From IMG/VR virus record IMGVR_UViG_2687453623_000004: a DNA stretch of 64,000 bases, one strand, 5' to 3'. The translations under genes and the position numbers were made by a program. Positions 34,735 through 64,000 of this stretch are shown piece by piece (position 1 is the first letter of the stretch; every line of letters starts with the position of its first letter). Origin of the DNA: a virus (lineage: Duplodnaviria; Heunggongvirae; Uroviricota; Caudoviricetes). A model generated the notes under the pieces. It ran no database searches. It had not been told where the DNA came from and saw only the letters and a list, made by a program, of their open reading frames with translations.

Positions 34735-34753
34735 AAACGTTGGTTTGGGGGAA
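34730..34753 (+). promoter_or_regulatory. Putative crossover site B (direct) immediately after the S stop codon
   Basis: CATAGAAACG-TT-GGTTTGGGGGAA. Confidence 0.4.
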
Positions 34754-35206: not shown

Positions 35207-35212
35207 TACCGT

Positions 35213-35827
35213 TCAGCCGGCAAGCGCCAGTGGCGCTTCCGGCCAGCTGATTTCAGGTGCCTTGCTGATATCCAGTGCGTTCAGCTCGTCGATATAATCC
35301 AGCACGGCGTTCAGTTTTGCCGTTTCTTCTGGTTTCAGACTGCGACCAGCACGCAGTTTGAGGTTGATAAGATCGACGGACGCCATCGCCTGTTTCACCC
35401 GTTGCTGGCGTTGCTGTCTGGCAACCTCCAGTTCTGCGGCTCGCTGCCGTTCAGTATCGGTTACCCACGCCTCACCGTTCCAGGTATCCCATGGCGTGGC
35501 TGGCTGTTTTGTGGTGGTGTCCGCCGGGTAATCACCCGGTTGGGTAATCAGAACGGGGTTACCGTTCTCCGTGCTGTATACCGTCTCGCCGCGGTGATCA
35601 GGCACATGCTCCCACCCGTTCAGCGTGGCAGTCCGGCAAACCACGTAACCCGAAATTGCTTCCGGCGGTGCATCGGCGCACGAATGTGCCGGAGTACCCA
35701 CCCCAAGGGCGAGATACTCCACAGAGGATGAGGTGTATTCCCGGGTTTCCTCGTCATAGTGATATACAGTGATATCGCCCGCTACAGTGGCGATACCGTT
35801 TTCATCCAGAACTGCAGTGTTACTCAT
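35213..35827 (-). CDS. Tail fibre assembly protein (U'-like), inverted orientation
   Basis: 204 aa; C-terminus ...ISWPEAPLALAG typical of Tfa family. Confidence 0.6.
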   Translation of the reverse strand: MSNTAVLDENGIATVAGDITVYHYDEETREYTSSSVEYLALGVGTPAHSCADAPPEAISGYVVCRTATLNGWEHVPDHRGETVYSTENGNPVLITQPGDYPADTTTKQPATPWDTWNGEAWVTDTERQRAAELEVARQQRQQRVKQAMASVDLINLKLRAGRSLKPEETAKLNAVLDYIDELNALDISKAPEISWPEAPLALAG

Positions 35828-36309
35828 TAAACTGCCCTCACAATGTAATTAAGTGCAATGCTACGGGGTCTGACAGTGATACCCTTCGCATACCCGCTTC
35901 TGATAGAGGTCAGAATAGTAGCCTGCATACCATTGTCTGACATTGCCACGACAGGATCGCTGAATGTTGTCCCGTCCGGCATTTTAAAGCTGCCCTCACG
36001 AAGGTCTGTAATGGAATCTTCATTGTTGAATCCCATGCCGACTATCCCCGAGGTTCCCGTAGTGTCCTGGTTATAATAATCCAGCATTGCTGTTCTTAAC
36101 AGCGTTGCCCCTTGTGCGGACAGCAACTTACGTCCTGTATCAACTTTGCGCCCGTCGTCCCATCCACGGATAAACTCACCGCGTAAATCGGGAAGACGGA
36201 GGGTCGGGTAGACTCTGGCCAGAACAGGATATTGTTCTTTTGTAAAGGCGCGCCCGTCGCACTTTAACCAGCCTGCTGGCGGTGTGGCGGTGGGCCACGG
36301 AACAGGCAC
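35827..36309 (-). other. Inverted alternative tail-fibre C-terminal cassette (Sv3)
   Basis: Begins PVPWPTATPPAGWLKCDGRAF..., ends ...RPRSIALNYIVRAV; its 5' ~210 bp is almost identical to S at 34301-34512 in inverted orientation. Confidence 0.6.
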
Positions 36310-36320
36310 ACCAACGGGTA

Positions 36321-36346
36321 GCGCCGAGCCTTCTCCTAAACCAACG
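36321..36346 (-). promoter_or_regulatory. Putative crossover site C (inverted)
   Basis: Reverse complement GATAAACG-TT-GGTTTAGGAGAA. Confidence 0.4.
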
Positions 36347-36407: not shown

Positions 36408-36983
36408 TTAATGCTGATTGGCTACATACGTGTGTCAACAAATGACCAAAACACAGATTTGCAACGCAATGCATTAATGTGCGCAGGATGTGAACAGATT
36501 TTTGAGGACAAAATGAGCGGAACCAAGTCGGAACGACCAGGCCTGAAACGCGCTTTAAAGTGCCTTAAAAGAGGGGATACATTGGTGGTCTGGAAGCTGG
36601 ATCGGTTGGGTAGAAGAATGAAACACCTCATTGCTCTCACAGAAGAGCTACGCGCAAAAGGTGTCAATTTTCGCAGTCTGACGGATTCAATCGATACCAG
36701 CACTCCGATGGGAAGGTTCTTTTTTCATATGATGGGTGCACTGGCAGAAATGGAGCGTGAACTGATAGTTGAGCGCACGCTGGCTGGACTGGCTGCTGCG
36801 CGAGCACAAGGAAGAGTTGGAGGACGTCGCCCGAAACTGACGAAGGAGCAGCATGAGCAGATCGCAAGATTGCTCCAGAAAGGGTATGACAGAAAGCGGC
36901 TGGCAATTATCTATGATATTGGACTGTCAACGATCTACCGCTATCACCCTGTTGGGACTGTCATAACGCAACCTGAAATGTAA
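36408..36983 (+). CDS. gin: Serine DNA invertase (Gin/Hin/Pin family)
   Basis: MLIGYIRVSTNDQNTDLQ ... catalytic Ser motif and C-terminal HTH; start at internal Met of the track ORF. Confidence 0.85.
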   Translation, partial: LMLIGYIRVSTNDQNTDLQRNALMCAGCEQIFEDKMSGTKSERPGLKRALKCLKRGDTLVVWKLDRLGRRMKHLIALTEELRAKGVNFRSLTDSIDTSTPMGRFFFHMMGALAEMERELIVERTLAGLAAARAQGRVGGRRPKLTKEQHEQIARLLQKGYDRKRLAIIYDIGLSTIYRYHPVGTVITQPEM

Positions 36984-46280: not shown

Positions 46281-46343
46281 TATCTAATCACATGAAATAA
46301 AAGGATTTATTTCTGGTCACGTCCACACATTGACCACATCGAC

Positions 46344-46368
46344 AAAAAAAGCCCCTCGACTGAGGGGC
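46344..46368 (-). terminator. Rho-independent terminator downstream of ogr
   Basis: GCCCCTC-AGTC-GAGGGGC followed by TTTTTTT on the minus strand. Confidence 0.5.
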
Positions 46369-46381
46369 TTTCCATTTGTAA

Positions 46382-46600
46382 TTACATCCACATAATTTGC
46401 TGCCCTGACGGCAACGGGTGCGGCCTTACGGCGTGGACTTCTCCCGGCTTCACGATGTATCGCTGTACCGACTCATAGGTGATGAACGTGGCGCTGCAAT
46501 TCACGTTCTGACACTGGTGATAACGCTCTTTTGTCGTGTCAGTGATATAGCGGCTTGTACGCGCATGTGCGGCATGCTGGCATAAAGGACAATGAAACAT
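46382..46600 (-). CDS. ogr: Ogr/Delta zinc-finger late-gene activator
   Basis: MFHCPLCQHAAHARTSRYITDTTKERYHQCQNVNCSATF... 72 aa from the internal Met; four Cys. Confidence 0.85.
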   Translation of the reverse strand: MFHCPLCQHAAHARTSRYITDTTKERYHQCQNVNCSATFITYESVQRYIVKPGEVHAVRPHPLPSGQQIMWM

Positions 46601-46681
46601 CGCGAGCACCTCTTCCGGTTTTGTTGACGGTGCCATTTTAGTTAATTTATCCTTACAAAACAAACAGATAAATAAAACACA

Positions 46682-47845
46682 TCACTCATCACCTTCTGTT
46701 TCGTACTCCACATCAGAAAGCCTGACCTCAAGCTCTAAGGACGTCGTGAAGCCGCTATTATTCAGAAAATGTGTCACCTTAGTGATTGTCCAGTCCTGCT
46801 CGTCTATGACGCGCTTAAAGCCTGACACTTTGACCGGCGTTTCCGTGTAAATATCTGCCCGACCGGTAGCCAGACTGATGGAGAACTCCGCAACGCCCCG
46901 TTGCAGTTTATCCCACTTCGCCTGAGCGGCACGCATGGCCTGCGCTTTCGTGGCATATACCGTGGTCAGGGCAAAAACGTTGTCAGCCTCACCGGCCATG
47001 TATTCACCTTCACGCGCTTCCGGTACTTTAGGCGCTTTCTTCTGCCTGACCGGTTTCGCTTTCGGGTGCTCCAGTGCGCGCAGGTGTTTCTCTTTCTTTT
47101 TGCGTTTCAGTTTTACCTTCTGCTTTTGCGGTTTCGGGTCTTTGGTGTGTAACCACTTTGCCGTTACGCCTGTATAGGCTCCGCGGTCAGCAATCGCAAA
47201 ATGATGACGGTCGCCGTCGCTGCGGGTGATGGTAATCTGCGGGATTTTTTTACCGCTGGCCGTCACCCCCTGCCCCGCTTTGAGAAACAGCAGTTTTCCC
47301 ATTTTTACCGACACCTCACCGCCGTTGCGTTCAGCAAGACGGGTCAGGAATTTCGCATCAGACTCCTGCGACTGGTCGATGTGCGGGATTTTAATTCCTG
47401 CCAGTGACGGCGCGACACTGGCTTCCAGCCTGTTACGGGAGGCTATCGCCTCAACAATCGCACCGAGCGTGGTGTCATGCCATGAGCCTTCACGGCGGGA
47501 ATTGAGCGTCCCGCGAAAATCTGCACTCCGGGCGCGGATGGTGACCACATCCGGTGCGCCCCGGTGTTCAACCTCATCAACGGTGAATTTCCCTTTGCAT
47601 ACCAGGGCAAAACCTTTCCAGCCGATATACACCGTCAGGACAGCGCCACGAACCGGCAGCTCGACCTGCCCGTCGGCATCGTTCAGTTCAATATCAAGCT
47701 GGTCAGCCTCAAAGCCCCGGTTATCCGTCAGGGTCATGCTCATCAGACGGTCGCTGATATTGCCGGTAATATCCCTGCTGTCGAGCACCAGCATGTAATC
47801 CGGCGTCAGCGTACTGCCTGCATCAAATGTCAGTGCATCCAGCAT
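46682..47845 (-). CDS. D: Tail protein D
   Basis: 387 aa, same size and position as P2 gpD. Confidence 0.8.
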   Translation of the reverse strand: MLDALTFDAGSTLTPDYMLVLDSRDITGNISDRLMSMTLTDNRGFEADQLDIELNDADGQVELPVRGAVLTVYIGWKGFALVCKGKFTVDEVEHRGAPDVVTIRARSADFRGTLNSRREGSWHDTTLGAIVEAIASRNRLEASVAPSLAGIKIPHIDQSQESDAKFLTRLAERNGGEVSVKMGKLLFLKAGQGVTASGKKIPQITITRSDGDRHHFAIADRGAYTGVTAKWLHTKDPKPQKQKVKLKRKKKEKHLRALEHPKAKPVRQKKAPKVPEAREGEYMAGEADNVFALTTVYATKAQAMRAAQAKWDKLQRGVAEFSISLATGRADIYTETPVKVSGFKRVIDEQDWTITKVTHFLNNSGFTTSLELEVRLSDVEYETEGDE

Positions 47846-48324
47846 TATCCCGCCCCCGTCATACCCGTGAATTTAGTCGCCATACTGCCAGCCTTACCGA
47901 TGAGCGATTCCGCCTGTTTACCGATATCGCCATAAAGCGCGGCCAGTGATTCATCAACGCGGGTGAGCGACAGCGTAAAATCAATTTTCCGGGGTGTGCC
48001 GTCTGCAAAGAAAATACTCCCTGTTTCACTCACCTTGCTGATGACATACATGCCGTAAATCATGCCGGTGCCATCCAGCAACGGCCACGCCCGCCCCTCC
48101 TCTGCCATCAGCCTGAGCGTGGTCATCGTCAGCTTGCCGCCGGTCAGTTCGGGATAAAGCACACCGGCAAGCGTCATGTTTTCCTCACCCACACCGAGAA
48201 ACTGGTAGGCATCCCGTTTACCGATACGGGAATTTGACGGCCAGCGATAATCTGATTCACGCTGCATGGTCTGGTGTGGCAGCGTCTGGCGCATAAAAAC
48301 AAACATACCTAACGCGAGCATCAT
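47845..48324 (-). CDS. U: Tail protein U
   Basis: 159 aa. Confidence 0.8.
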   Translation of the reverse strand: MMLALGMFVFMRQTLPHQTMQRESDYRWPSNSRIGKRDAYQFLGVGEENMTLAGVLYPELTGGKLTMTTLRLMAEEGRAWPLLDGTGMIYGMYVISKVSETGSIFFADGTPRKIDFTLSLTRVDESLAALYGDIGKQAESLIGKAGSMATKFTGMTGAG

Positions 48325-48338
48325 TTTTCGTCACCTCC

Positions 48339-50785
48339 TTAACCGTCATGCATCATGCTGGCACGGGCGCGCGCTCGTTTATCCCGCTCGTATTTTTCGA
48401 GCGCATCCTGTAACTGGCGGTCGAGCTGTGTCCCCGGCGCAGTACCACCCGTCAGGCTGATGTGATATTCGTTTTTACTCTGGTCTACATAAGAGCGGCC
48501 AGCCGGTGCCGTGACCGGCTGATAAGCCTGATAACCTGCATAAGAGCTGGTCGCCGGAATATAACCACCGCTGCCATACGTGGCGGCTTGAGTTCTGGCG
48601 GCGGTCTGGTCAAGTGTGTCTGACTCTTTGTTGATAACACCGAGTTTTTCCAGTACCCAGTCAATACCACTGCGCAGTTTGTTGAACGCATTAAGCGGCA
48701 GCATCAGCGCGTCAGCCAGTGCCTGCCCGAACATGACGCCCGTGTCACGGCAACGGTTCAGGGTGTCCTGGGTGGCTTTGACCGGGGCAATCAGGTTTTT
48801 AAACCACTGCCACGCGGCCTGTAACTTTTCACCCAGCCAGTCAAACACCGGTTTAAGTGGCGTGAACAGTTCCCCCACCGGCGTAAATGCCGCTTTCAGC
48901 CCTTCCACCACACCGCCAAAGAATGCGCTGACAGGCTCCCAGTATTTACGGATAAGCAACGCCCCGGCGACAATGGCGGCCACCACGGCCACAACCGGCC
49001 AGCTAATCGCCCCGATGGCGGTCATAACAGCACTGCCAACCGTCGTGAAGATTGCCCCCATTGCGCCTGCTGCCGCGATGATGGCATTGATGCCGGTGAT
49101 AACCGGCCAGGCTACGAGGCCAATGGCACCGATGACACCAATCAGTGCCAGTGCACCACCGACAATGATGCCGATGGTTGACGCCAGTGATTTGTTTTTC
49201 TGGATCCAGCCGTCGAGTTTTAACACATACTTTGTGGCCGTCTGCGTGAGATTACGCAGTGCGCCTTCCTGCTGGTCAAACAGGTCAGTCCCCACCGCCT
49301 CATAAGCGGACTGAAACTCCTTAAAGTCACCGCCGAGGTTATCCTGCATGATTTTAACCAGCTCTTCCGTTTTACCGTCCGAGGCTTTCAGCGTGGCGGT
49401 CAGCTTATCCAGTTTTCCGCTTGCTGCCGCTGCCAGTAAAACGTTCGCTGATTTCAGGGCTTCCTCACCAAAAATGGTTTTAAGGTATTCCCCCTTCTGA
49501 GACGTTCCCAGCTTGTGTTTATCAAAGCTGGCCTGAATCTCTTTCAGAATGGTGAACAACGGACGCATATTTCCCTTTTTGTCCGAGGTTTTAACGCCAA
49601 GCTCTTTGAGTGCATCCCATGCTTTTCCAGTCGGTGCCTGTAATCGGGTGACAACGGCACTACTACCCGTACCCGCCATTGACCCCCTGATGTTATTGTC
49701 ATGCAGCACACCTGTCATGGCCGCTGCCTGCTCAAGACTTACGCCTGCCGTCCTCGCAACCGGCCCGAGGTAAGTCAGTGCATCACTGAGTCCCTGAAAA
49801 TCAGCGCCGACTTATTCATCGTTGCAGACAACACGTCGCCCACATGGCTGACATCATCATTTGACAGTTGAAAGGATGCCTTAGTCCCCAGCAACAGTTG
49901 CGCGTTTTCTTCCATCGACCGCTGATTCGCCAGTGCCATATTCAGCGTGACCGGCGTTGCCGCCTGAATAGCCGCAGCATCTCCACCCGCTTTCGCAATG
50001 ATAATCTGCGCACCGGCCGCATCATCCGCCGAGGCGGCTGTGTTGTCACCGAGCTGGCGCGCCTGTTTGCGGAGTGCGGTCATTTCGGCGGAGTCTTTTG
50101 CCACTCCGAGCACGGCCTGCAATTCTGAGTTTTTCTGCGCAAACTCATAACCGGGCATCAGCAGCTTAACTCCGGCCATCGTTCCCGCAGCAGCAATCCC
50201 CGCACCGGCAGCGCCCACTGAGGCCATATTTCCGGCCAGTTCCTTTCCTGCCTGATAACGCTGTTTGACTGCGTTAAGTTTTGCCTGTTGTACACTGACA
50301 CGCGCCAGCGCGTCACGCTGACGGTTAAGCTGTGCGGTGGTTTCACTGATACGGTTTTTCAGTCCCTGCTCATCATGTGCAAGATTGCGGGTATTAATTC
50401 CCACAGCGGCCAGTTCTCGCTGCTGGCGTTTAACGGAATCTGTCAGGCGGTTATATTTCGCCTGTAAGTCCTCCGCCGCACGCTTTGCGGATTCCAGCAC
50501 TTTCGCCTGAGCACGGGTCGGACGTTCGGTGTTTTTAAACTGTGTGGCAAGGGCTTCGGCTTCCTGTCGAGCCTTTTCAAATGCATGACCAGTCACGGCG
50601 AGCTGTGCACTGGTCTTGCGGAATCCCTCAATACGGGATGCGTGACCGTTCAGCTCGCGCAGTGATTTTTGTGTTTCCCGGATATCCCCCGACAGCGACT
50701 TGCTCGCTGTACGGATGGATTTAAACGGGCGGGATGCCTGGTCAACAGCCCTGAGCAATACCTGTAATTTTACATTGTTACTCAT
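48339..50785 (-). pseudogene. T: Tail tape measure gene T, split by a frameshift into 336-aa and about 487-aa reading frames
   Basis: Two minus-strand ORFs in different frames overlapping only at 49778-49811, which contains an AAAA run; combined length about 812 aa versus roughly 815 aa for P2 T (from memory). Confidence 0.6.
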
Positions 50786-51205
50786 TCGTGTTTCCGCTTC
50801 GCCGGAGCGCCTTTTCGCGCCATGTGATGAGTTCGGTCAGGCTCATGGGATACAGTTCTGATGGCGGCCAGTGAAATATCACTGCCACATCCGCCATCAG
50901 GTCATCGACCGAGAGATTTTTCGGAAACGTTACTGCACCGAGTTCGGCGACAAAAAACCGACCACCTTACCGGCCAGCGCCACAAGGTCAGGCAGCTCCA
51001 GCGCGGCGACCTCCTGCTCAGTCAGCATCGGTGCCGTCATGCGCGGCAGCACTTTAATCAGTGCATCGACTTCGGAGTTCGCGACCGCAGCCAGACTGAC
51101 ACCGCGCAGCGTCCCGGCATTGGGTTTCATCAGCGTGACCTGTTCGATAACCTGCTCACCACGCTTGACCGGATTGTCCAGGGTAATCACATTTTCTTTG
51201 TTCAT
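50781..51205 (-). CDS. E+E' frameshift product (programmed -1 shift at the T-TTT-TTG slippery run)
   Basis: Minus-strand G GTT TTT TGT at 50951-50957; the -1 frame continues to a TAA overlapping the T start (AATGAGTAA). Confidence 0.55.
50930..51205 (-). CDS. E: Tail assembly chaperone E
   Basis: 91 aa; ends ...GKVVGFLSPNSVQ. Confidence 0.8.
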   Translation of the reverse strand: MNKENVITLDNPVKRGEQVIEQVTLMKPNAGTLRGVSLAAVANSEVDALIKVLPRMTAPMLTEQEVAALELPDLVALAGKVVGFLSPNSVQ

Positions 51206-51261
51206 GGTTTTCTCACTTCTGAATCAGGGTTAACCGGTCAGCCTGGCTGACCGGATGAAAA

Positions 51262-51780
51262 TCACAGGCCGATATTGCGGCGGTGTTGCTCCAGCCGGTC
51301 GACGCCGTTCACCTTCTCAATCATGTTGATGGTGTCGATTTCGACCAGCTCCTTACCGTCCATCGTCAGCCGGAAATAGGTGCAGACCACGGAGATTTTC
51401 GACTCGGTGTCTTCTCCCTGTTTACCCTCTCCGGTGTCGATTTCTTTCTGACGTCCACGCATGACCACTTCGACGGCCACCGTTTCGCCGGTATCGTCAC
51501 GCTGGTAAGAGCCTGCAAAACGAATCGGCACGGCATCCACGCCGGTTGCGGCGTAAAGCTCCCAGATAACCGAATCCGGGAAGCCCCCGAGCGACCACTC
51601 CATTGACAGCGCATCGTCATCAAGGCCGAGGTCTACCGGTGCGCTGCCGTTCATCCCCGCACCGCGATAGTTTTCGAGCTTACGGGTCAGTTTTGGCAGC
51701 GTGACGGACTTTGCAACGCCCTGATAGCTGTAGCCGTTCAGAAAGACGTTCATTAACTTGAGTTTGCGCGGCATTGCCAT
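51262..51780 (-). CDS. FII: Tail tube protein FII
   Basis: 172 aa. Confidence 0.85.
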   Translation of the reverse strand: MAMPRKLKLMNVFLNGYSYQGVAKSVTLPKLTRKLENYRGAGMNGSAPVDLGLDDDALSMEWSLGGFPDSVIWELYAATGVDAVPIRFAGSYQRDDTGETVAVEVVMRGRQKEIDTGEGKQGEDTESKISVVCTYFRLTMDGKELVEIDTINMIEKVNGVDRLEQHRRNIGL

Positions 51781-51792
51781 CGGTCAGGCTCC

Positions 51793-52983
51793 TTAATTGC
51801 TGTTAACCGAGGTGACCAGATTTGCCAGGTATTTATCGGTAATACGCTGGCGCAGGGTCAGGTTTTCAAGAGGAGGCACCGGTGTATAGTCGTAGTCGAT
51901 ATACAGTTTTCCGGCCTTGAGGGTTTCCGCATCGTTGGATTCTTCGCTGAACCAGCAGGTCGCATCCACGATATAGCCGTTTGTTTTCAGCTCACGGAAT
52001 TTGGCATTGATGCCGTCAACGATGTCGCGAATCAGCGTTGCGGTGATGGGCTTGTCCACCGCCCACATGTGCGCCTCAGCCATCGTGTCGGCAAGCACCT
52101 GCGCGGTGCGGGTGTAGTTTTCAAAGAGGAACAGCGGGTCATCAGAGCAGGTACGGTTACCCCAGAAGCGGAAACCGTCACGGCGAATCAGCGTTGTGAC
52201 GCCTGACTCGTTAAGCAGGTCAGCATCGGTACCGGACTCCTGCAAATCCCAGAATACAGAGGCGCTGATGCCGGTAACACCGCTTACCCCGACGTTGGAC
52301 AGCGTTTTATGCCAGCCCTGCTCCTGGTCGATTTTAGCACGCAGGCCCAGTGCACGAGCGGTGGCATACGCGGTGGCGGTGGTACTGGCGACCGTATCCC
52401 ATGCGAGGAAATCCGGCCAGATGACCATCAGCTCACGCTGGCTGAAATTCTGGCGGTAGGCTTTCACCTCGGAAATGGTCTTACAGCCCCATGCGCTGAT
52501 ATACCCGAAAGCGCGCAGCTTCTGACAGACTGATGCCAGTGCGACGGCAACCTCTTTGGTGTCCAGTCCCGGCACACCAAGAATACGCGGTTTAACACCG
52601 GTTACCGACTCCGCCGCCAGCAGGGCTTTCAGTCCGGTGTACTGACCGTTTTCGTCGGTGGTGCCGATGATATTGGAAATGGTCTGCGCAAGTTTCGTTT
52701 CTTCGTCGTCGCCGGTGCCGTCTTCCACACGCACGACAACGGTGACCGGTTTTGACTGGTCGGCGATGGCCTGCAACGATGCCGCCAGCGTGCCTTTTTT
52801 ACCGGCCTTTGCAATTGCGCTCTGCACATTGGTTATCAGCACCGGTTTATTGAGGGGGAAGGTTTCCGCATCCGCATCGCTGGCCGTGCAGACCATGCCG
52901 ACAATGGCCGTGGATACGGTGGAAATGACGCGGGTGCCGTCGTTAATCTCCAGCACCTGCACGCCGTGATGATAGTCACTCAT
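51793..52983 (-). CDS. FI: Tail sheath protein FI
   Basis: 396 aa. Confidence 0.85.
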   Translation of the reverse strand: MSDYHHGVQVLEINDGTRVISTVSTAIVGMVCTASDADAETFPLNKPVLITNVQSAIAKAGKKGTLAASLQAIADQSKPVTVVVRVEDGTGDDEETKLAQTISNIIGTTDENGQYTGLKALLAAESVTGVKPRILGVPGLDTKEVAVALASVCQKLRAFGYISAWGCKTISEVKAYRQNFSQRELMVIWPDFLAWDTVASTTATAYATARALGLRAKIDQEQGWHKTLSNVGVSGVTGISASVFWDLQESGTDADLLNESGVTTLIRRDGFRFWGNRTCSDDPLFLFENYTRTAQVLADTMAEAHMWAVDKPITATLIRDIVDGINAKFRELKTNGYIVDATCWFSEESNDAETLKAGKLYIDYDYTPVPPLENLTLRQRITDKYLANLVTSVNSN

Positions 52984-53070
52984 CCGTTTAACTCCGTGGT
53001 TAATGGGTGCAACTATTTTCTGTTGTGCAGAGCATGAGACGCTATTTGACCTGGCTGGCCAGTGGATGAA

Positions 53071-53106
53071 ACAACAAATAAAGAAAAGGCGGGCAATCAG
53101 CCCGCC
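53071..53106 (-). terminator. Rho-independent terminator upstream of FI, terminating the cargo gene transcript
   Basis: GGCGGGC-AATCA-GCCCGCC perfect stem followed by TTTTCTTTATTT on the minus strand. Confidence 0.5.
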
Positions 53107-53294
53107 TGCCTTGATTTGTTCTCACTCAGCTTCCAACTGACAAGTTACATAATCAAAACGCTATTAAATCTGACAGTCTGCTTTGAGCGATGAACGGACA
53201 TAACGACTCACTAATGACTAATTTGCTAACCGCTTCCGACCCAAAACTGTCGGTTGCATGATAATTAATCCAGCAAGCAAATTCATAGTCATTG

Positions 53295-53771
53295 CTATAT
53301 GTTACTGGGATTATTAAAAGGGATAATACTGGCCAATCCGTCATCAACATCAAGACCATAGGTAACCGCTATTTCTGCCAGAGAGTTACCACACTTTTGT
53401 CGCAGTTTAAAAAGGGCTCGCTCAAGTATGGATATTTGAACAGGATGATCAAGTTGGATAAAGTGAGGGGAGCCAACGCTGTCACAGAATTCTTGGCATG
53501 CTTTTCTCATTTTCCTTAATTGTTTTGCTAAATGTGAATCGCTCGGCAAACCTTGTAGGACTTTAGTCAATTCAGATCTAATGTTGATAACACTCGAAGT
53601 GCAATGACTAGCACCCTCCATGTCGACAGGATTGAAAAGAACGCGCTTGTCCTCAAGAAAAATGACGATCTTCTTCGCTTCGTCAGTTTCTATTATTGGA
53701 GCATTCCACTGAATCCCGAATATGGGACAGCTAAGGCCAGTAATATTTTTATAGATTTGTTCAAATTTCAA
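53295..53771 (-). CDS. Cargo protein of unknown function (158 aa) in the G/FI hotspot
   Basis: AT-rich; apparent TTG start 7 nt after a strong AAGGAG; own terminator; no family recognised. Start codon position by my count is 53770-53772 (one-nt discrepancy with the track). Confidence 0.5.
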   Translation of the reverse strand: MKFEQIYKNITGLSCPIFGIQWNAPIIETDEAKKIVIFLEDKRVLFNPVDMEGASHCTSSVINIRSELTKVLQGLPSDSHLAKQLRKMRKACQEFCDSVGSPHFIQLDHPVQISILERALFKLRQKCGNSLAEIAVTYGLDVDDGLASIIPFNNPSNI

Positions 53772-54030
53772 AAGTCACTCCTTGGATGGACTCTGAGCAT
53801 ATAAAACGCCATACTGATAAACGGACTCGGTTCAAGTAATCTGTTAGATAGCATAACTCGGAACCACTGTAAAAATAGTTGTTAACATACCTAAAAGTGA
53901 CAGCGGAGGCAAGATTCCCTCAGCCGGAGCGATAAATTAGGCATAAGTTATACACACATTAGTAATAATCACTAAAGATATTCTAATTTTTTATGCCGAC
54001 TTAATATGATTTCCCGTCAATCAGGTTAGC

Positions 54031-54054
54031 GTCCGCTCCTGGCACAAAGCGGAC
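54031..54054 (+). repeat. 24-bp hairpin repeat copy 1 (GTCCGCT-CCTGGCACAA-AGCGGAC)
   Basis: Perfect 7-bp stem; second copy at 54954-54977 with 21/24 identity. Confidence 0.6.
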
Positions 54055-54159
54055 GAGGTAACTGAGCTAAAGGTCCGCTGTGAGCGAAAAGTGGACATTA
54101 GAGTTACAAAAGTAAGTTTAAATCATCCAAAATATTACAATATCCTTATCTATCTGATA

Positions 54160-54189
54160 TTGTTATGATAAAAAGTTCCTGAATATAAT
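54160..54189 (+). promoter_or_regulatory. Sigma70-like promoter for the membrane-protein gene
   Basis: TTGTTA, 18-bp spacer, TATAAT; AGGTGG ribosome-binding site 9 nt before ATG 54212. Confidence 0.45.
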
Positions 54190-54211
54190 CGATAGTAGGT
54201 GGTTATTTTCC

Positions 54212-54589
54212 ATGAAATCAATTTTAGAGGTTTTTACTCAAGGAAATACTAAAGAAAAACTGGCTGTTATCGCTGATCTCACAACCATTGCGGGAATATC
54301 GATAGCAACTATTATTGCTGGTTTGTTAACCCTAGTTGCAAAAACAGATAAACTAGATGTTGGAAATCTGTTTGGAGTTGTCATAATATCTCTGCTCGGA
54401 TTGGCTGGTGTTTGCTGTTTTATGGCCCTATTTATTTGGGTTATAACCCAAATGTCTAAACCATGGGGAACACCTCGGGGGATTCAGTCCTTAGTTAAGT
54501 GTGCTATTTCCCTTATCTTTATCTGTATTTTTTTGCTGGCTGTCTTTACATTTTATGAGGTTATTTCTTCGATGAGAATACTCTATTGA
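54212..54589 (+). CDS. Small membrane protein (125 aa, three predicted helices), unknown function
   Basis: AT-rich; hydrophobic stretches IAGISIATIIAGLLTLVA, VVIISLLGLAGVCCFMALFIWVI, AISLIFICIFLLAVFTF; own promoter and terminator. Confidence 0.5.
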   Translation: MKSILEVFTQGNTKEKLAVIADLTTIAGISIATIIAGLLTLVAKTDKLDVGNLFGVVIISLLGLAGVCCFMALFIWVITQMSKPWGTPRGIQSLVKCAISLIFICIFLLAVFTFYEVISSMRILY

Positions 54590-54614
54590 ATATAAAATCA
54601 GCTCTCATAACTTA

Positions 54615-54643
54615 AAAGAGGCCTTCTATAAGGTCTCTTTTAA
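54615..54643 (+). terminator. Rho-independent terminator after the membrane-protein gene
   Basis: AAAGAGGCCTT-CTAT-AAGGTCTCTTT followed by TAATTG. Confidence 0.5.
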
Positions 54644-54953
54644 TTGAATTACCATCCTATTAATCCAGAGAATCTTTATCATCACAAAATAACAAACATT
54701 GGAGATAATTAATAAACTAATCATCCTCAAGATCATCTTTATCTTTACAAAGCGAGTGTCAGTATTCATCCTAACATCAAGTGCAGAATGGAGTATTTTA
54801 TGTATCTTCATGCCGCTTGCACGCTTTATCTCGTTTTTTGTAGGTGGTGTACTATCTCTAAATGACCATTTATATGGTGTAAGACTACTGACTTTAGAGG
54901 GCTATGATCTACATAGTTCTTCTAACCATTATTCTCCAAATAAACTTTACAAC

Positions 54954-54977
54954 GTCCGCTCCTGGCACGGAACGGAC
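54954..54977 (+). repeat. 24-bp hairpin repeat copy 2 (GTCCGCT-CCTGGCACGG-AACGGAC)
   Basis: Same orientation as copy 1; an AATCAGG-like flank lies on the opposite side (CCTGATTAGG). Confidence 0.6.
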
Positions 54978-55642
54978 AGCCTGATTAGGTTTTACTCTGT
55001 GCCATAGATGAGTAATCTCATACCAGAGCTAATACGATTTATTGCGGCATTTCTGGCCATTCTATATCCGGAGCATTTTCCGGCTGAACGCGATTCAGTA
55101 GCACACGGTATTTTTTCCAGTGTGTCAGGCTTAACTTTTCTTCCTCGGTAGCCATATCTAAATCGACAGCATCCTGCAGAGTGCCAATAATTTCACCGGC
55201 ATATGCAATCTGCTCTTTCTTCTGAGACTCCGCCGCTCTGACAAGTGCATCATGCTCTGCATTCTCATCATTCACCCACGCATTTCCGTTCCATTTCTGA
55301 TAATCCCCATCCGGGGAAATGGCTGTCACGTCTGGAGGTAATGCACCAAGTTCAGAAATATAAATGGCTGCTCCCGTTTTCGTTTCGTAGACAGTCTTTC
55401 CGCGATGATCTTCCATCAACTCCCATTTCATTTCATCTGCATTGAAAACGGCTGCATAACCAGCAGGAATATCAGGTGGTGCAATATCTGTACTGTTTGC
55501 AGGCAGACCTGTATGCGGCGGAATATATGCATCACTTTCGCCAATAAACTCATTGGTTGCGTATTACCGTGAAGGAGATCGGTGAGTAACATCGATGGAG
55601 ATCGGTTCGTGTCACTTTCACAGAACCGTTTTTAAATTACCT

Positions 55643-56392
55643 TCACTGATCTCCTTCGGTCAACGGAGATTGTATTTTCCGCATTGATTCTCCTTTAAGT
55701 TCGATCTTGATACTGCCATGAACCAGTCGATCTAGGATGGCATCCGCATGTGTGGAGTCTCCGATCATTTTGTACCAGTTTTCCACCGGCAACTGGCTCA
55801 CTACGATGATTGAGCCTCGTTGGTACATCAGATCCACTATTTCCAGCAGGTCGCTACGCTGTTCTGATGAGAGAGGTTCCAGCCCCCAGTCATCCAGAAG
55901 CAGCAGATCGCTATTATTCAGCCTGGTCAAAAGTTTGCTGTATCTTCCATCAGCATGCCCCTGATAGCACTGTTCCATCAGCGCTTTAAGGCGATAATAG
56001 TAGACCTTGTATCCCTGTCGGCAGGCATTATGACCAAGTGCACATGCCAGGAACGTTTTACCGCTGCCGGTGGCCCCGGTCAGTAAAATATTTTGTTTCA
56101 GGGTTAACCAGTTTCCCTGACTGAGTGAACGGATGAGGGCCCTGTCCAGCCCTCTATTGTTACGATAATCCAGCTTTGATAACTCAGCATTAAGTCTGAA
56201 CCGTGCATGTTTGATCAGACGCTCTGCCTTCCTGTTTTCACGGCAGGTTAGTTCTTCTGCTGTCAGTAATGACAGGCGTTCTTCGAAGCCCAGCTCCTGG
56301 TATGTGCCCGGTTGAGCAAGTTGCTTTTTAAGCGCATCACGGAAGCCGGTGAGTTTAAGTGCGGTCAGTTGTTCGTAAAGATGATTCATCAT
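55643..56392 (-). CDS. istB: IS21-family helper ATPase IstB
   Basis: 249 aa; Walker A LTGATGSGKTF. Confidence 0.85.
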   Translation of the reverse strand: MMNHLYEQLTALKLTGFRDALKKQLAQPGTYQELGFEERLSLLTAEELTCRENRKAERLIKHARFRLNAELSKLDYRNNRGLDRALIRSLSQGNWLTLKQNILLTGATGSGKTFLACALGHNACRQGYKVYYYRLKALMEQCYQGHADGRYSKLLTRLNNSDLLLLDDWGLEPLSSEQRSDLLEIVDLMYQRGSIIVVSQLPVENWYKMIGDSTHADAILDRLVHGSIKIELKGESMRKIQSPLTEGDQ

Positions 56393-56403
56393 TGGATCCC
56401 GTA

Positions 56404-57945
56404 TCAGTGGTAATACTCACTGCCGCGTACGTTTTCGTGTTCCATCGTGGATAACAGATCTGGTTTTGGATCCTGAACAGGTTGTTTATCCAGACCTTTT
56501 TCCAGGATCGATTTAATACCTGACAGACGCCATACCTTTGTTTTCAGAGCTCTTGCACATGCTGCATTAAGTCTGGCTTTACTGTATTTTTTATGAAGGT
56601 TCAGGAGTCCAAGGCAGAAGCGATAGCTTTGTTCCGGATGTGGACGAGAGTTCAGTATATGAAGCACATAACTATGAGTTTCACTGCCTATGTGCCCCGC
56701 CCATTCCAGAAGACGCTCTGGCGTCCAGGTGGCATGCTGTCGATGAGCTTCAGGCATGTGCTCGTTGCGGGTACTGTAGCCATAAGTACGCTTGCGCGGG
56801 TGCACAGCAACCTCCTGCCCCTGATTGAAGAGTCTTACCAGTTCTCCGGAGATCCATGCTTCCAGTTGCTGGCCTAACAGCGAACATGGAACCGAGTAGT
56901 AATGTTTGTCGATTTCCACGTGGTAATCGGCATGAACTCTGACTTTCTTCACCAGGGTGTAACTGTAACTGGCTTCAGGAAGAGGCTTCAGTGCGGGTTT
57001 ATCAAGCTGGATGAAGAGTTCTGCACGTGAATAACCCAACTTCTGCATTATTTTGTTATTCAGTCTTTCCAGCAACTCCCGAATGCGCTGATTAAGCGAT
57101 GCAAGGCTGTAGAAGATCTCATGCCTGATTCGGGCCATGATCCAGCGTTCAACAACCTGAACGCCAACTTCAGCTTTGGCTTTATCTTTCGGTTTACGTG
57201 GCCGCGCAGGCAAAACTGCGACATTATAATGCTCAAGCATCTGCTGGTAGGTAGGGTTAACGTCAGGATCATACTTACATGCCCTGGATGTGGCGCTTTT
57301 CAGATTGTCCGGAACAACAAGTTCAGGAACGCCACCCAACCACTGGAAGCAGCGAACATGACTCATCACCCAGTCTTCAAGCTGCTGAGACCAGGTGGCC
57401 TCTGCCCATGTGTAACTTGATGCCCCGAGAACAGCTACGATGACCTGAGCAGTTCTTATTTCTCCGGTCTCAGGGTCGGTAACGCCAACGGTAGGTCCAC
57501 AGTAATCAACGAAAAGTTTTTCGCCAGCTTTATGTACCTGACGCATTGATGGTGAAGTGGTTTTGAGCCATTCACGGTACATCCGGCAGTAATGGTTATA
57601 GCTGTAAAAACCGCCTGGATTACGCTCACAGTATTCTTCCCAGAGTAGCTGCAGCGTCACGCATTTATTACGCAGTTCCCGGTGTACTGTAGCCCAGTCA
57701 GGCAGAGAGTGCTTCTTCATCTTAACCTGGGTCTGAAGGAACGCATGTTTTAGTTTTGTATCATCCCATCCTGTAGGTAAGGGCCACTGCTTTATGCCAA
57801 GTTGAGCCGCCCGATTAGCATATCTGGATACAACGGAAGGGGAGATTGCAAGACTACGACCAATTTGTCGATGGCTGAGTCCAACACCGTATTTAAGCCT
57901 AAGAATTTCTTTAAGTTTTCTCATAGAAATTGGAACTGTTGGCAT
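56404..57945 (-). CDS. istA: IS21-family transposase IstA
   Basis: 513 aa; N-terminal HTH; upstream of istB. Confidence 0.85.
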   Translation of the reverse strand: MPTVPISMRKLKEILRLKYGVGLSHRQIGRSLAISPSVVSRYANRAAQLGIKQWPLPTGWDDTKLKHAFLQTQVKMKKHSLPDWATVHRELRNKCVTLQLLWEEYCERNPGGFYSYNHYCRMYREWLKTTSPSMRQVHKAGEKLFVDYCGPTVGVTDPETGEIRTAQVIVAVLGASSYTWAEATWSQQLEDWVMSHVRCFQWLGGVPELVVPDNLKSATSRACKYDPDVNPTYQQMLEHYNVAVLPARPRKPKDKAKAEVGVQVVERWIMARIRHEIFYSLASLNQRIRELLERLNNKIMQKLGYSRAELFIQLDKPALKPLPEASYSYTLVKKVRVHADYHVEIDKHYYSVPCSLLGQQLEAWISGELVRLFNQGQEVAVHPRKRTYGYSTRNEHMPEAHRQHATWTPERLLEWAGHIGSETHSYVLHILNSRPHPEQSYRFCLGLLNLHKKYSKARLNAACARALKTKVWRLSGIKSILEKGLDKQPVQDPKPDLLSTMEHENVRGSEYYH

Positions 57946-58204
57946 AGGTATCCTTTACCGGAATGGCAAAAGATACAGATCAACACACCTGTGAAGTTCC
58001 AATAACATTGATGGAGATCACTGAATAACAAAATGAGTCAAAAGTGATCTCCATCGATGTTATTCAGCGATCTGTTCAAATGTTATTACCCGATCTCGAT
58101 GGAAGTTATTGAGTGATCTCCTTTCATGAAAATACGCACATTGGTTCCATCAAGTAAATTGAAAACGCGGATAGTTTGTGCTTCTGCACTCATTCTGAAA
58201 GCCA

Positions 58205-60829
58205 TTATGCAAGCCTCACAATATAGTTAAATGCGATGTTTTTGACGGTGTTTTCTGTATTACCTGTAGCATTAACGGTAATAGAGTGCCCGTGTGAGCC
58301 AATAGCAACCGTGTGTGAATGTGCACCAATACCAACCGTATGATTATGTGCACCAATATCTACCGTGTGGGCATGATTCCCGGCAGCTCCTGATGTGCCA
58401 TTAAACGATGGGTTGTCAAAGCCTGTTTTACCGGTTTCACCATTAGTATTGGCATTCCCTCTGTAAATGGTATGTGTATGGTTACCAGTGGTATTAGTGG
58501 TTTTTGTTCCGTAGTTAAACGTACTGACTGTCTTCGTCCCGTAATCAAACGAACTGGTTGTTTTCGTTCCCAAATCCGTATTTGACGCACTGGCACTGTG
58601 AGTATGCGATTTAATCCCGTCCTGTTCCTGTGACAATACGGCACGCCCACTGGCGGGTTTGCCCTTGATTGTCCAGCCGCGCATATCAGGAATAACACCA
58701 GAAGGATAGGCTATAGCCAGTTTCGGATATGCTGCCTTATCAAACGTCTGCCCCTGCATGATTGCATAGCCTGCAGGTGGTGTATCTGATGGCCACGGCA
58801 GCGGAACACCAGGCGGAAACGCTTCAATATTTGCCGAGCCGTCAAATTTTACGCCGTTAATTGTCCTTGCCGTTTTCAGCTTTGTTGCTGTAGCCGCATT
58901 GCCGGACAGTTCACCAGAAAGGCCTGCACTGAATGTCTGTTTTGCCTCCCATGTCTGGGCTTCGTCGATAATTGGTAGCCGACGAATATTGAAGCTACGC
59001 TCCCCAGGATTGCCATATAAGCGGACTGTAAAAAAACGATAGTTGGTTTTGTTTGAAGTGCTGCGCCATACCTGCATTGAACGGGCGACACCTCCGCCTT
59101 CACTGGGGCCAACAGTGATATTTATCAGGTTAGTATCAATGACGCCCCATTCCATCCCATCGGGAATATTGGTCATATCTGAAAGCCTGACAGTTATCAT
59201 GCTGCCCGGTATAAAGTCGTAGGTCTGCCAGTCCAGACTGGATAACCTGTCGGTAACACCGCCGACACCTAATTTAGTGAGTAATGATTTTGAGTTGTAT
59301 ACTTCCGCCCATTCCCCCCAGTCAGTTTCACCGCTGGCGCGGGTTCGCTGAAATGTCCGGTTTTTATAGGCATCCGTTGCTGAAACAGTCGTATATGTCT
59401 GGATATACGATTCAATATCACAACGTTTTTTCACCTCAACTATTGAGCCAACAGCAAGATCTTTAGAGTCGGTGACAGGTGCATTTGTGGCCTGTTTCGT
59501 GACGCTATAAATACCAGGCTTTAAAAGGTCATCAAGATCCCCTGAATAAGTCCATCCCGTGGACTGATACCCAACAGCAATCCAGTCCTCCCATTGTGGA
59601 TTTTCTGCATCCCATGAGGCTGTCAGTCCGCGAATGTACATAGTCCCACTACGGGTGGTATAACGTTGCATCCTCCCATACAGACCGCCTTCAAAGACTT
59701 CCAGAATACCCTGTCCAAAACTCCCTTCCTCCGGGAAATGACGGTCAAATGAGGCTATTGATGTACTGCTATTGCGCCATATTCCCAGGTGTTCCGCACC
59801 ACCTAAAGAATTCAGGTCAATTGACGTGCTTAATGGGCGAGTCCCGCTTGTAATAGCTCTCCATGCACTCCATACAGGACTGACAGGGTTCCATTCTGCA
59901 TCAAGCATCCGAATGTAAATATTACCGGTTCGGGTGGTGTAGCGTTGTGTGCAGTGAAAGCGACCAGCATTGAATACTTCCAGAACCCCATTGCCTTTAT
60001 CTTCAGGGTAACCAGACTCTGGTTTTGCAGTGGATTGTGACGGACATGACCACGTTCCAAGATATTTTTCTTCTGGGCCATAGGAATCAAGATTGTCAGT
60101 GGTTGGAATCATTCCATTGTGTTTCATAAACGTCAGGCTGGTAACGCCAATATTGTCCAGAAAAGCGCCCTTATCTGGAATATCGCCACCGTTCTGGTCT
60201 TTCTGCAGACGTTTCTCAGCATTGTCATAGGCTGCTTTTACTGCCTTTGGCGTTGCTGCCAGCTTTTCACTGGTGCTGTTTGTTGCACTGCTTAACTGAG
60301 TAAAACCTTTTTCTGTCAGCGTGGCGTCAGGATGGCGGCGGGACTGCTCATGCTCTGCGATTTTGTCATCGACGTAATCCTGCGTCGCCATCACTGTGCT
60401 GGCATCAATACTCAGCTCAACAGACGCCACGTTACTGACAATAATGACCATGCGGCAGGTCTGCGCACGCCCGGAGCCTTCAGCCAGTTCAGGCTTATAG
60501 CTTTCTGCCATGTTAGCGACCGCAATCAGTGTTCCGGCATCATCATACAGACCAAGTTCACGCATCCAGAAGCCGCCCACTTCTGGCGGTACAACCAGTT
60601 CAGCCACGATATAGTTTTTATTCTTGTTATCCACGCTGACTTTATTCAGAGCGTGACGCCAGACCTCATGCACCAGTTTCGTCTGACCGGCATCCGGCAC
60701 CGGCAATTTGCCATTACCGTCACCCACGGCCATTGCAGACAGGTTTACTTTTTTCCCGCCGGGGACAGTGGCGGCTGCCAGCTTTGCGGCTCCGGCAGTA
60801 GTGATAACGGTTTTAAATTTCGTGCTCAT
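58205..60829 (-). CDS. H: Tail fibre protein H (mosaic, longer than P2 H)
   Basis: 874 aa; P2-like N-terminus; C-terminal region with GAHxHTV repeats and ...[12 protein letters not shown] end shared with the Mu-like fibre cassettes. Confidence 0.8.
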
Positions 60830-60839
60830 TGTTTCTCAC

Positions 60840-61370
60840 TTATCCGGGATAAACAGTAATAACATCACCATCACAGACCACACCGCCTGTATACAGATAG
60901 CCGGGAATGTCCTGGATAATGTTCAGACCGATAAGGTGGCGACTTGCGGGTTTGGCATCGGCAATCAGCCGTTCCATTTCCAGATACATCTCCTCCGTGA
61001 TGCCGCTTTCCAGTACGCCGATATCAAGGCGGAAGGTTCCTGGCGGGTCGTTTGTCTCCCACCATTCCTTTACGTTAATGAGATAGCCGAGCGGCTCCAC
61101 CACACGCCGGATTGCGCCGACAGTGCCTTTATGACAATGAATGAAATAGGCATCGCGGATAACGGCGCGTTTTGTCGCTTCCGGCCACTTTTCATCCCAG
61201 CGGTCAACCGAAAATGACCACGCCAGCCACGGCAGTAGATTTGCCGGGCAGGTGTCCGGGTTCCACAGCTCACGAATACTGACCGGCGTTTTTTCAATTT
61301 CCGCACAGGCTTTTGCGGCGGCGACTTCAAGCGGTGATGAGCCAGTCGGCAGCAGTCGCGAATCACTCAT
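60840..61370 (-). CDS. I: Baseplate protein I
   Basis: 176 aa. Confidence 0.8.
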   Translation of the reverse strand: MSDSRLLPTGSSPLEVAAAKACAEIEKTPVSIRELWNPDTCPANLLPWLAWSFSVDRWDEKWPEATKRAVIRDAYFIHCHKGTVGAIRRVVEPLGYLINVKEWWETNDPPGTFRLDIGVLESGITEEMYLEMERLIADAKPASRHLIGLNIIQDIPGYLYTGGVVCDGDVITVYPG

Positions 61371-62271
61371 CCGAGCCTCCGGTCACGACGCTGTATTCGG
61401 TGCAGAAAGACGCCTGCGTACTGTTGAGCACAATGTCGGCCAGTGGTGCGGCCAGCTCGACACGCTGCACGCCTTCCACATGCAAAGCGGCATAAATGGC
61501 AGACAGACGGATGTCGCGCCCCAGCCGGTGCTGTGCCGTGATGTACGCTTCCAGTTTTTTCACGGCAGCAGCGCGGATGGGTTCGCTTTCGGGACCAGGG
61601 TAAAGGTAAAGCGTGGCGTTTATCTGGTATTCAACAATGGCGGCAGACTGCACGGTCACGCGGTCGGCCACCGGCCTGACGTCCTCGCCATTAAGGGCGT
61701 TACGCACCACCGCCAGCAGGTCTTCGGATGCCACACCGTTATTTTCACGTGACAGCACAGAGATGGTGACGCAGGCCGGAGACGGACTGGTGACAGAGAT
61801 ATCCGCGACACGCCCATCGGCACTGCGACCATGATACTGATAGGCTCCCACCGACCCGGCGACGCTTAAACCTTCAAACGCCTGCTGAATACGCAGACGA
61901 TAATCGGTGTCAGACTCCATCACTGCCGGTGTCGGCGGGATGGTCGAATCATCTGCCGGGGTGATAGTCAGGCGCGTGGTGTTGTAATTGGCACCAATCA
62001 CATCAAGGTCATTACCGGCTGCACAGGCCAGCATCACCGCCCGTGCAGCCTCATTCACACGCTGACGCCAGATAAGCTCACGATAAGCATTTTCCTCCAG
62101 CAGTTTGACGAGAGGCTCAGATTCCAGCGTCAGGGTACGGGCGACCGCCTCCTGCTGGTCTTCCGGGTAAAGGGAAATCAGTGTCGCCTTGCGTTCAGCG
62201 AGAATGGTTTCAAAGTCCAGCTCCTCGACCACATCCGGTGCGGGTAGCTGGTTCAGGTCGATAATCGGCAT
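61363..62271 (-). CDS. J: Baseplate assembly protein J
   Basis: 302 aa. Confidence 0.85.
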   Translation of the reverse strand: MPIIDLNQLPAPDVVEELDFETILAERKATLISLYPEDQQEAVARTLTLESEPLVKLLEENAYRELIWRQRVNEAARAVMLACAAGNDLDVIGANYNTTRLTITPADDSTIPPTPAVMESDTDYRLRIQQAFEGLSVAGSVGAYQYHGRSADGRVADISVTSPSPACVTISVLSRENNGVASEDLLAVVRNALNGEDVRPVADRVTVQSAAIVEYQINATLYLYPGPESEPIRAAAVKKLEAYITAQHRLGRDIRLSAIYAALHVEGVQRVELAAPLADIVLNSTQASFCTEYSVVTGGSDE

Positions 62272-62275
62272 GGTT

Positions 62276-62623
62276 TCAACTCACAGGGATGGTTAACGAA
62301 AGTGGCTGGCCGGTGTCGTTGTGCTGGCCGGTTAACGTGACCGTCATTCGCCCGTCAAAACTGCGCGCCGTAGTGACGGATGACAGGGTGACGCGGGGTT
62401 CCCATTTCAGCACGGCCATGTAACAGGCGACCTTAATCTGCAACTCAAGCGCCGGGGTCTGCGGCTGGTCAATCATTGACGCCAGCAACGAGCCGTAATC
62501 ACGACGCATCACCCGTGAGCCGACCGGTGTGCGCAGGATATCGCCGATACTCTGGCTGATATGCTCAAGGTCAGTGACAGTCAGGCCATCACTGCGATTC
62601 ATTCCGAGATAACGCGCTGTCAT
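62276..62623 (-). CDS. W: Baseplate wedge protein W
   Basis: 115 aa. Confidence 0.8.
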   Translation of the reverse strand: MTARYLGMNRSDGLTVTDLEHISQSIGDILRTPVGSRVMRRDYGSLLASMIDQPQTPALELQIKVACYMAVLKWEPRVTLSSVTTARSFDGRMTVTLTGQHNDTGQPLSLTIPVS

Positions 62624-63255
62624 AGAGGACTCCCGGTTGTGCCGCCGCTGTCGCCGGGGTGTTTATGGGTATGCAGTACCTTACCGTTTGATGAGAGTTC
62701 ACCGCCGGTGTGTTCAATGTTGCCGCGCATCGTCCCGCCCTTCTGCACTTTCAGCGTGCCGGTAATCAGCCTGTTGGTGCAGACCACCTCCGGTGTGTCC
62801 AGGGTGATGCGGGTTGATGCTTTCACCATGACCACCGGCACCGTGGCAGTAACAGAATCAGAAGCCGTCACGCTGGCCGTTTTAATTCCGCTTACCGTGA
62901 GTGCACTGGTTTCGGGTTCATACTCAATCACCGCCCCGTCAGGGAAACGGATATGCAGGGCATCAGCCGACGCAGACGGCGCGGGGTTATCGCCGGAATA
63001 AATCCCCGGCAGAACAAACGCCGTGTCAAGTTCACCACCCACGGCCAGAATCAGCACCTGTTCCCCCACGGAAGGTGCCCACCATGTGCGCGAACGTCCT
63101 GCGCGATGGGTCAGCCACTGAAGCCAGTCGGTGCACATGCCGCCGGTCTGCACACGGCAGCGACCGGCGTTAAGGTCGGTTTCGACGATAATGCCGGTGC
63201 GGATCATGTTGCGCAGTGCGCGCGCGAGTTCCTGAATATTTGCGAGAGTGTTCAT
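62620..63255 (-). CDS. V: Baseplate spike protein V
   Basis: 211 aa. Confidence 0.8.
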   Translation of the reverse strand: MNTLANIQELARALRNMIRTGIIVETDLNAGRCRVQTGGMCTDWLQWLTHRAGRSRTWWAPSVGEQVLILAVGGELDTAFVLPGIYSGDNPAPSASADALHIRFPDGAVIEYEPETSALTVSGIKTASVTASDSVTATVPVVMVKASTRITLDTPEVVCTNRLITGTLKVQKGGTMRGNIEHTGGELSSNGKVLHTHKHPGDSGGTTGSPL

Positions 63256-63321
63256 AACGGGAAGGATGCCGCCGGGTCATACCGGCGGCAATGTGACGAT
63301 GAGGTGTCGGGAATGGCACAA

Positions 63322-63774
63322 CTAACGGTCGAGGTGAGCCAGAATAATCTCTTCAATCATCTGCACATCCTCACCGGTAAAGCCGAGCAGAGGACGCGCC
63401 GGATAATCAATTTTCTTACCGTCTTTCCGGGTTTCTTCCGACAGACCGAACTGATGCACACTGGCGATTTTCGGCGACTTCCCGCCGTAAAATTCCATTG
63501 ATGCCTGTTCCGGGCTGGCGCGGATATGCAAAAAACGACTGGTGATAAGTTTCGCAAACATTTTTCGCTTAACACGACCGGTCTTTTTTCTGGCGCTCTG
63601 CTGCTGGCGTGGCGCGTAGGGTGTGCCGTCCGGGGCTTTCTGTGCCATCACCCGACGCTGCTGACTCTGCCGCAGACGCTTCGCCAGCTCTGCACTCAGC
63701 CGCCGACGCCCTGACGGTGACAGCGACTCAATCAGTCCGGTCAGCCGGTCTTCAAAACGCTTAAACTCATTCAT
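63322..63774 (-). CDS. S: Tail completion protein S
   Basis: 150 aa. Confidence 0.75.
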   Translation of the reverse strand: MNEFKRFEDRLTGLIESLSPSGRRRLSAELAKRLRQSQQRRVMAQKAPDGTPYAPRQQQSARKKTGRVKRKMFAKLITSRFLHIRASPEQASMEFYGGKSPKIASVHQFGLSEETRKDGKKIDYPARPLLGFTGEDVQMIEEIILAHLDR

Positions 63775-64000
63775 CCCACTTGCTCACCAGTTCGCCATTG
63801 ATATAAAGCTCCATCGGGCGGGTGACCGGCTCCGGCGGCGGGGGTTCCGGGATATTCTTCACATGCAGTGCGCCGTCCACCTCACTGACCAGCGTTCGCT
63901 CGGTCAGCATCAGGCTGATGCTGATATCAAAACTGCTGTCATTGTTGATGTCTGCATAAAACGTGAAGCCCTTTTTCTGGCCTGCGTCGGTGGTCATGAT
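63767..64000 (-). CDS. R: Tail completion protein R, C-terminal part (gene continues beyond the window)
   Basis: Position upstream of S; the track Met at 63997 is probably internal. Confidence 0.55.
   Translation of the reverse strand: MMTTDAGQKKGFTFYADINNDSSFDISISLMLTERTLVSEVDGALHVKNIPEPPPPEPVTRPMELYINGELVSKWDE

Follow-up and report, generated by a model that had tools for sequence, protein, structure and literature searches.

In a P2-like (Peduovirus) prophage of E. coli, gene T, which encodes the tail tape measure protein, is read here as two open frames in place of one, which raises the question of whether the split reflects a real inactivating mutation, an error in the sequence record, or an unusual way of expressing the protein. 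The window analyzed, a stretch of 64,000 nucleotides from the IMG/VR virus record IMGVR_UViG_2687453623_000004, carries T on the minus strand at 48339..50785, with 2447 nt instead of 2448. We consider it highly probable that the split T is a genuine, vertically inherited 1-bp deletion in a recently inactivated P2-like prophage of one ST131 sublineage.

The tape measure gene and its missing base

The naming of T as the P2 tape measure gene in a preliminary description is borne out by both nucleotide identity and synteny. The window region 48300-50800 matches T of P24C9, 10W, Wphi, and P2 isolates over its full length with 97.0-97.6% identity (97.6% over 2501 nt for the Peduovirus P24C9), and each of these matched phage records spans one base more than the window query. 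The neighboring genes follow the P2 tail operon order, FI-FII-E-E'-T-U-D-ogr, with T behind the E/E+E' chaperone pair and ahead of U and D. The locus thus shares its nucleotide identity, gene order, and PF10145 core with gpT of the P2-like phages Wphi (NP_878224.1) and P24C9 (YP_009877282.1), and differs from them by the one base missing at 49805/49806 and the resulting truncation at 336 amino acids.

The N-terminal fragment is a 336-aa open reading frame on the minus strand (49775..50785), starting with the ATG at 50785 and ending with the TGA at 49777-49775; its residues 1-327 are authentic T sequence, while residues 328-336 (LIFRDSVMH) are out of frame. The C-terminal T frame, also on the minus strand (48339..49811), is preceded by a TAA at 49814-49812 and stays open for 490 codons up to the stop at 48341-48339, with its first start codon, an ATG at 49718, defining a 459-aa open reading frame. 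Insertion of one base restores a single 815-aa frame with no other stop and about 98.5% amino acid identity to T of P24C9. Each fragment holds a part of the Pfam profile PF10145 (PhageMin_Tail): positions 1-90 of the profile align with residues 239-327 of the N-terminal fragment (E = 8.1e-13) and positions 91-201 match residues 3-115 of the C-terminal frame (E = 9.7e-26), so that both fragments combined give the full domain, with the break at profile position 90/91. The locus is a pseudogene of the P2 gpT family and not a functional member of it, as it has the domain and the operon position of gpT, whereas its frame is broken after codon 327 and becomes continuous, at about 815 amino acids, only with the restored base.

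The position of the lesion was obtained by MAFFT alignment with three intact or near-intact T genes, those of P24C9, Wphi, and 11W. This comparison with intact relatives, which the preliminary description had called for, places the 1-bp deletion at 49805..49806 (minus strand), and over 2.5 kb the window sequence shows no other internal gap. The coding strand changes from TCG GCG GCT GAT to TCG GCG CTG AT at codons 327/328, with the loss of one G of the GG doublet in GGCGGC; on the plus strand, AGCCGCCG has become AGCGCCG. The preliminary coordinates were right in every case (the end of the 336-aa frame at 49775, the stop at 49812-49814, the AAAA at 49797-49800), and so was the confinement of the frameshift to 49778-49811. 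On the other hand, the role it implied for the A-run, or for a homopolymer, found no support. The T4 run (the A-run of the plus strand), which together with the rare codon AGG forms AUU UUC AGG in the upstream frame (49793..49801, minus strand), is unchanged from the relatives, and slippage on this run was rejected as the origin of the gap, which lies 5-8 nt away in the GG doublet.

A phase-variable contingency locus is not indicated, because the indel lies in a GG doublet with no long simple-sequence tract and no revertant was found among the complete-genome matches with at least 99% identity, all of which carry the deleted form. Relative to P24C9, synonymous and non-synonymous differences number 24 and 3 before the break and 23 and 9 after it, the differences being few and most of them predating the deletion.

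Distribution and inheritance of the deleted allele

A search of 5426 complete E. coli genomes found 17, from at least eight projects, that share 601 of 601 bases with the window, including the deletion: SaT040, CCUG 73778, LS4 (two records), CU568-3, S21EC, S22EC, USVAST219, REF1, AH21H052, and seven OZ03/04 records. All remaining complete E. coli matches have at most 98.3% identity and span 602 bases, that is, with the extra base present. A T gene of the P2 type is found in about 1570 complete E. coli genomes. The exact 336-aa product (P0001) occurs in 247 public contigs (NCBI, JGI, ENA, and Logan) and in 453 blocks of a public gene-position index, and the exact 459-aa frame (P0016) in 234 contigs, with accessions adjacent to those of the N-terminal fragment, such as ELF45482.1/ELF45483.1. 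Within IMG/VR, a 37-mer of the mutant form is found in four contigs, two of them with metagenome identifiers, and the corresponding wild-type 38-mer in 41. The feature is already known as an annotation. The PGAP label "phage tail tape measure protein, frameshifted" is attached to the locus in all four records opened, and the respective RefSeq pseudogenes are AVR72_RS28530 (SaT040), FMA85_RS09495 (CCUG 73778), CUB99_RS03465 (LS4), and ACSYAV_RS07515 (AH21H052). These four represent one locus carrying one allele: they share a 601-nt core without a mismatch and show no differences at T.

The preliminary description had left open a genuine inactivating mutation in a defective prophage and a sequencing error, judging that the sequence alone could not distinguish them. 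That judgment was fair, and the comparative data now decide in favor of the real deletion. The possibility of a sequencing or assembly error, for instance a homopolymer miscall over an intact T, draws on the fact that single-base indels are the commonest long-read error, and comparable cases are close at hand: SaT040 alone shows a G6 to G5 change in gene H, and the split T of phage 11W stems from an "N" inserted in its record. Here, though, the lost base belongs to a run of 2 nt and not to a homopolymer, the identical allele recurs in the complete genomes, contigs, and index blocks counted above, and it is present in contigs with metagenome identifiers as well. Moreover, the window region 46300-64000 is 100% identical to LS4 and to CCUG 73778, whose assembly (SPAdes, about 200x Illumina MiSeq plus Nanopore) yielded no variants when compared with the reads (PMC7355845). 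An error is left with a negligible probability, and these comparisons show the T deletion to be genuine, with sequencing error effectively excluded.

The case of Escherichia phage 11W (NC_070902.1) is instructive. Its T is likewise annotated as two tape measure coding sequences, but the split is due to a single ambiguous "N" inserted at locus position about 2855, equivalent to window position 49448, and it is an artefact, unlike the reproducible deletion in the window. The shared GG-doublet deletion, set against the private G6 to G5 change of SaT040 and the "N" split of 11W, offers a worked example of how a real frameshift can be told from an artefact.

Two of the carriers have been placed in the ST131 lineage: SaT040 is the ST131 clade B reference (PMC13645330) and CCUG 73778 belongs to ST131-O25b (PMC7355845). 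Over the chromosomal flank from aroA to pflB (8601 nt), only 0-1 SNP separates the window from each of SaT040, CCUG 73778, LS4, and AH21H052, while the ST95 strain IHE3034, which has a related P2-like prophage with an intact T at the same site, differs by 50 SNPs. This contrast between carriers and ST95 shows that the deletion allele is vertically inherited and marks one ST131 sublineage. Among 24 contigs in which the context of the truncated protein was read, only two contexts were seen, both adjoining pflB. P2-type phages integrate site-specifically, and the shared pflB site is for this reason weak evidence for clonality; more weight falls on the identity of the flanks. A frameshifted phage that moved horizontally would have to be functional; such spread was rejected, as neither the contexts in the 24 contigs nor the essentially identical chromosomal flanks of the carriers showed any sign of it. 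An identity with the "ST131 tailocin/prophage 5" was also considered, and there was no sign of it: the prophages described in that study are present in most ST131 genomes (PMC9205054), and the deleted allele is found in only 17 of the 5426 complete genomes.

Translation of the broken frame

Translation of T is predicted to continue for nine out-of-frame codons after Ala327 and to halt at 49777-49775, giving a 336-aa fragment. Of the 815-aa protein, 488 residues (60%) would be missing at the C-terminal end, among them the second half of the PF10145 core and the C-terminal helices on the baseplate spike. To nucleate tube polymerization and set tail length, the tape measure protein must be one continuous, baseplate-anchored chain. 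Given the loss of the C-terminal part and the need for a continuous chain, we infer by homology that the prophage should be tail-defective; it would be unable to build tails or infectious particles.

The 459-aa C-terminal frame might be translated by re-initiation, and one could imagine that the 336-aa and re-initiated 459-aa fragments act as a split tape measure protein in a functional phage. Both frames are long and otherwise undamaged, and gene callers annotate two tape measure proteins in many drafts. Nevertheless, the break cuts through the middle of a single conserved domain (PF10145 1-90 / 91-201), and 31 codons pass after the frame opening without a start, so residues 328-358 would be lost. 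A natural split at this point occurs in none of 77 related phage records with at least 80% query cover, and the role of a length ruler, from general knowledge of tape measure proteins, needs a continuous chain. A working split protein is accordingly hard to credit, though less so than a sequencing error.

Somewhat less remote, but still very improbable, is a leaky deletion, in which ribosomes would correct the frame by a -1 slip in the P site, tRNA-Phe moving from UUC to the overlapping UUU (49799-49796) with the rare codon AGG in the A site. The upstream frame reads CUG AUU UUC AGG. A step back by one nucleotide would allow the tRNA on UUC to pair anew with UUU, after which reading would proceed in the -1 frame as CAG GGA CUC..., the authentic frame of T. 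A tail takes only a few tape measure chains (the density of the P2 tape measure fits 3 to 6 chains per tail), and a trickle of product could yield some tails. A rare AGG in the A site and low-level "compensatory" frameshifting are both documented (PMC5009743). An equally small chance is given to the consequence of such slippage, namely that the product is an 815-aa T with the changes A328L and D329I and the prophage is attenuated rather than dead; the trans-frame tryptic peptide predicted in this case is SALIFQGLSDALTYLGPVAR. If true, a temperate phage would provide a case of a "savior indel plus compensatory frameshift".

The overlap, AAG UCG GCG CUG AUU UUC AGG GAC UCA GUG AUG CAC UGA, contains no X XXY YYZ heptamer of the canonical kind; AUU has no pairing available in the -1 frame, which leaves only the single-tRNA re-pairing from UUC to UUU. 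A stimulatory recoding structure has no clear support, as the fold of 49765-49800 (-8.6 kcal/mol, z = -1.41) was equalled by 17 of 200 shuffles and its hairpin, of 6 bp and located 6 nt downstream of the UUC codon, is weak and no better than the shuffles. The sequence is the same in the intact relatives, so nothing here has evolved for recoding. The allele is, furthermore, confined to one clone and one site with no horizontal spread seen, and insertion sequences keep accruing in the tail genes, giving no hint that selection favors the making of particles. Some restoration of the frame may occur at a low level, as far as sequence evidence can indicate.

The T split is not a programmed ribosomal frameshift. 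A conserved frame change is absent among 77 phage records with at least 80% query cover and among the E. coli matches with at most 98.3% identity, all of which have the extra base and with it a single frame. A useful comparison lies immediately upstream of T, where the programmed -1 frameshift of P2 E/E+E' likewise changes the reading frame within the FETUD operon. All relatives share the E/E+E' shift, and its slippery heptamer is intact here (TTTTTTG, 50957-50951, minus strand); the homologous coding sequence in Wphi is annotated as "-1 translational frameshift". The T shift, in contrast, is a lineage-specific deletion with no conserved signal.

The P2-like prophage and its surroundings

The preferred reading, that of a real inactivating deletion, places the T lesion within ordinary, recent prophage decay. 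The part of the prophage inside the window (46382..64000, minus strand, as annotated for the identical stretch of CCUG 73778 and SaT040) contains ogr, D, U, T, E', E, FII, FI, two cargo open reading frames, G (interrupted), H, I, J, W, V and onward; the prophage sits between pflB and pflA and extends beyond the end of the window. In CCUG 73778, its genes besides T are annotated as intact, apart from G, which is split by ISEc12; the intact genes include integrase, repressor, cox, replication endonuclease, portal, terminases, capsid, lysis, baseplate, sheath, and tube. Prophages of the P2 type do not respond to SOS induction.

The second lesion of the same prophage is this ISEc12 element (IS21 family; 55558..58138, minus strand), which encodes istA (56404..57945, minus strand) and istB (55643..56392, minus strand) and interrupts the tail-fibre assembly gene G 60 nt from its beginning, with a target duplication CATTGGT(T) at 55551-55557/8 and 58139-58145/6. 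The window prophage is thus additionally without a functional G, and in CCUG 73778 and LS4 the pieces of G are labeled partial pseudogenes. Not every carrier of the T deletion has ISEc12 in G: it is found in the window, CCUG 73778, LS4, REF1, and AH21H052, whereas G is intact in S21EC and CU568-3, and among the 24 contigs read, G is free of insertion sequences in 20 and interrupted by ISEc12 in four. AH21H052 combines ISEc12 in G with an IS-adjacent deletion that reaches the lysozyme gene, ISCro1 is present in REF1, USVAST219, and OZ038879, and IS4 also in OZ038879. These later lesions, together with the G6 to G5 change in H of SaT040, distinguish the carrier isolates from one another. The pattern indicates that the T deletion preceded the insertion sequences, which accumulated afterwards.

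Decaying E. coli prophages, with their point indels and insertion sequences, likewise show a frameshift in an essential structural gene followed by independent insertions and deletions. Compared with decayed E. coli prophages, this one is at a very early stage of decay, and the lack of further damage in the rest of T shows that its inactivation is recent. The importance of the T finding is small. Its main implication is that the P2-like prophage between pflA and pflB in one ST131 sublineage, including the clade B reference SaT040, would be a recently killed element and not an active phage, which is relevant for the scoring of "intact" prophages in ST131; additionally, the allele could be used as a lineage marker.

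The tail-fibre gene H (58205-60829) is intact in the window and encodes 874 aa. At the position equivalent to window 59319, SaT040 has G5, whereas the window and the other carriers have G6, and H of SaT040 is annotated as frameshifted; the G5 is a homopolymer change private to this strain or else an error of long-read sequencing.

Two cargo open reading frames lie between G and FI, one for a DUF6650 protein of 158 aa (53295-53771, minus strand) and the other for a protein of 125 aa (54212-54589, plus strand). This is where P2 has Z/fun, a known hotspot for accessory and defence genes. A PADLOC scan of both cargo frames by FI gave no match. At the same cargo position, IHE3034 has a different gene content (DUF5677). 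The (TG)n repeat in the intergenic stretch ahead of the DUF6650 gene, at about 53952-53959, is (TG)3 in the window, CCUG 73778, LS4, and AH21H052, and (TG)4 in SaT040. The other carrier free of insertion sequences, L053, shows a 2-bp difference from the window in one gap, as SaT040 does. Among the loci compared, the 2-bp difference accompanies the absence of ISEc12 in G.

The window also carries a complete Mu-like transposable prophage (1-37060), located between ycaL and aroA and containing genes for Mor, Gam, a DDE transposase, an ExeA/MuB-like ATPase, the head, and a contractile tail. SaT040 is without this prophage, and the carriers of the T deletion thus differ in this element. The tail-fibre invertible segment of the Mu-like prophage (34298-36344) is in the opposite orientation to that of CCUG 73778, with 99.5% identity as the reverse complement, and is flanked by a gene for a Gin/Cin-type recombinase (invertase) at about 36411-36983; it looks like a normal host-range switch caught in two states. 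The tape measure gene of the Mu-like prophage is intact (983 aa, about 25635-28586) and contains an internal tandem duplication at 27433-27985, where two overlapping copies of about 290 nt, 92% identical, are offset by about 260 nt.
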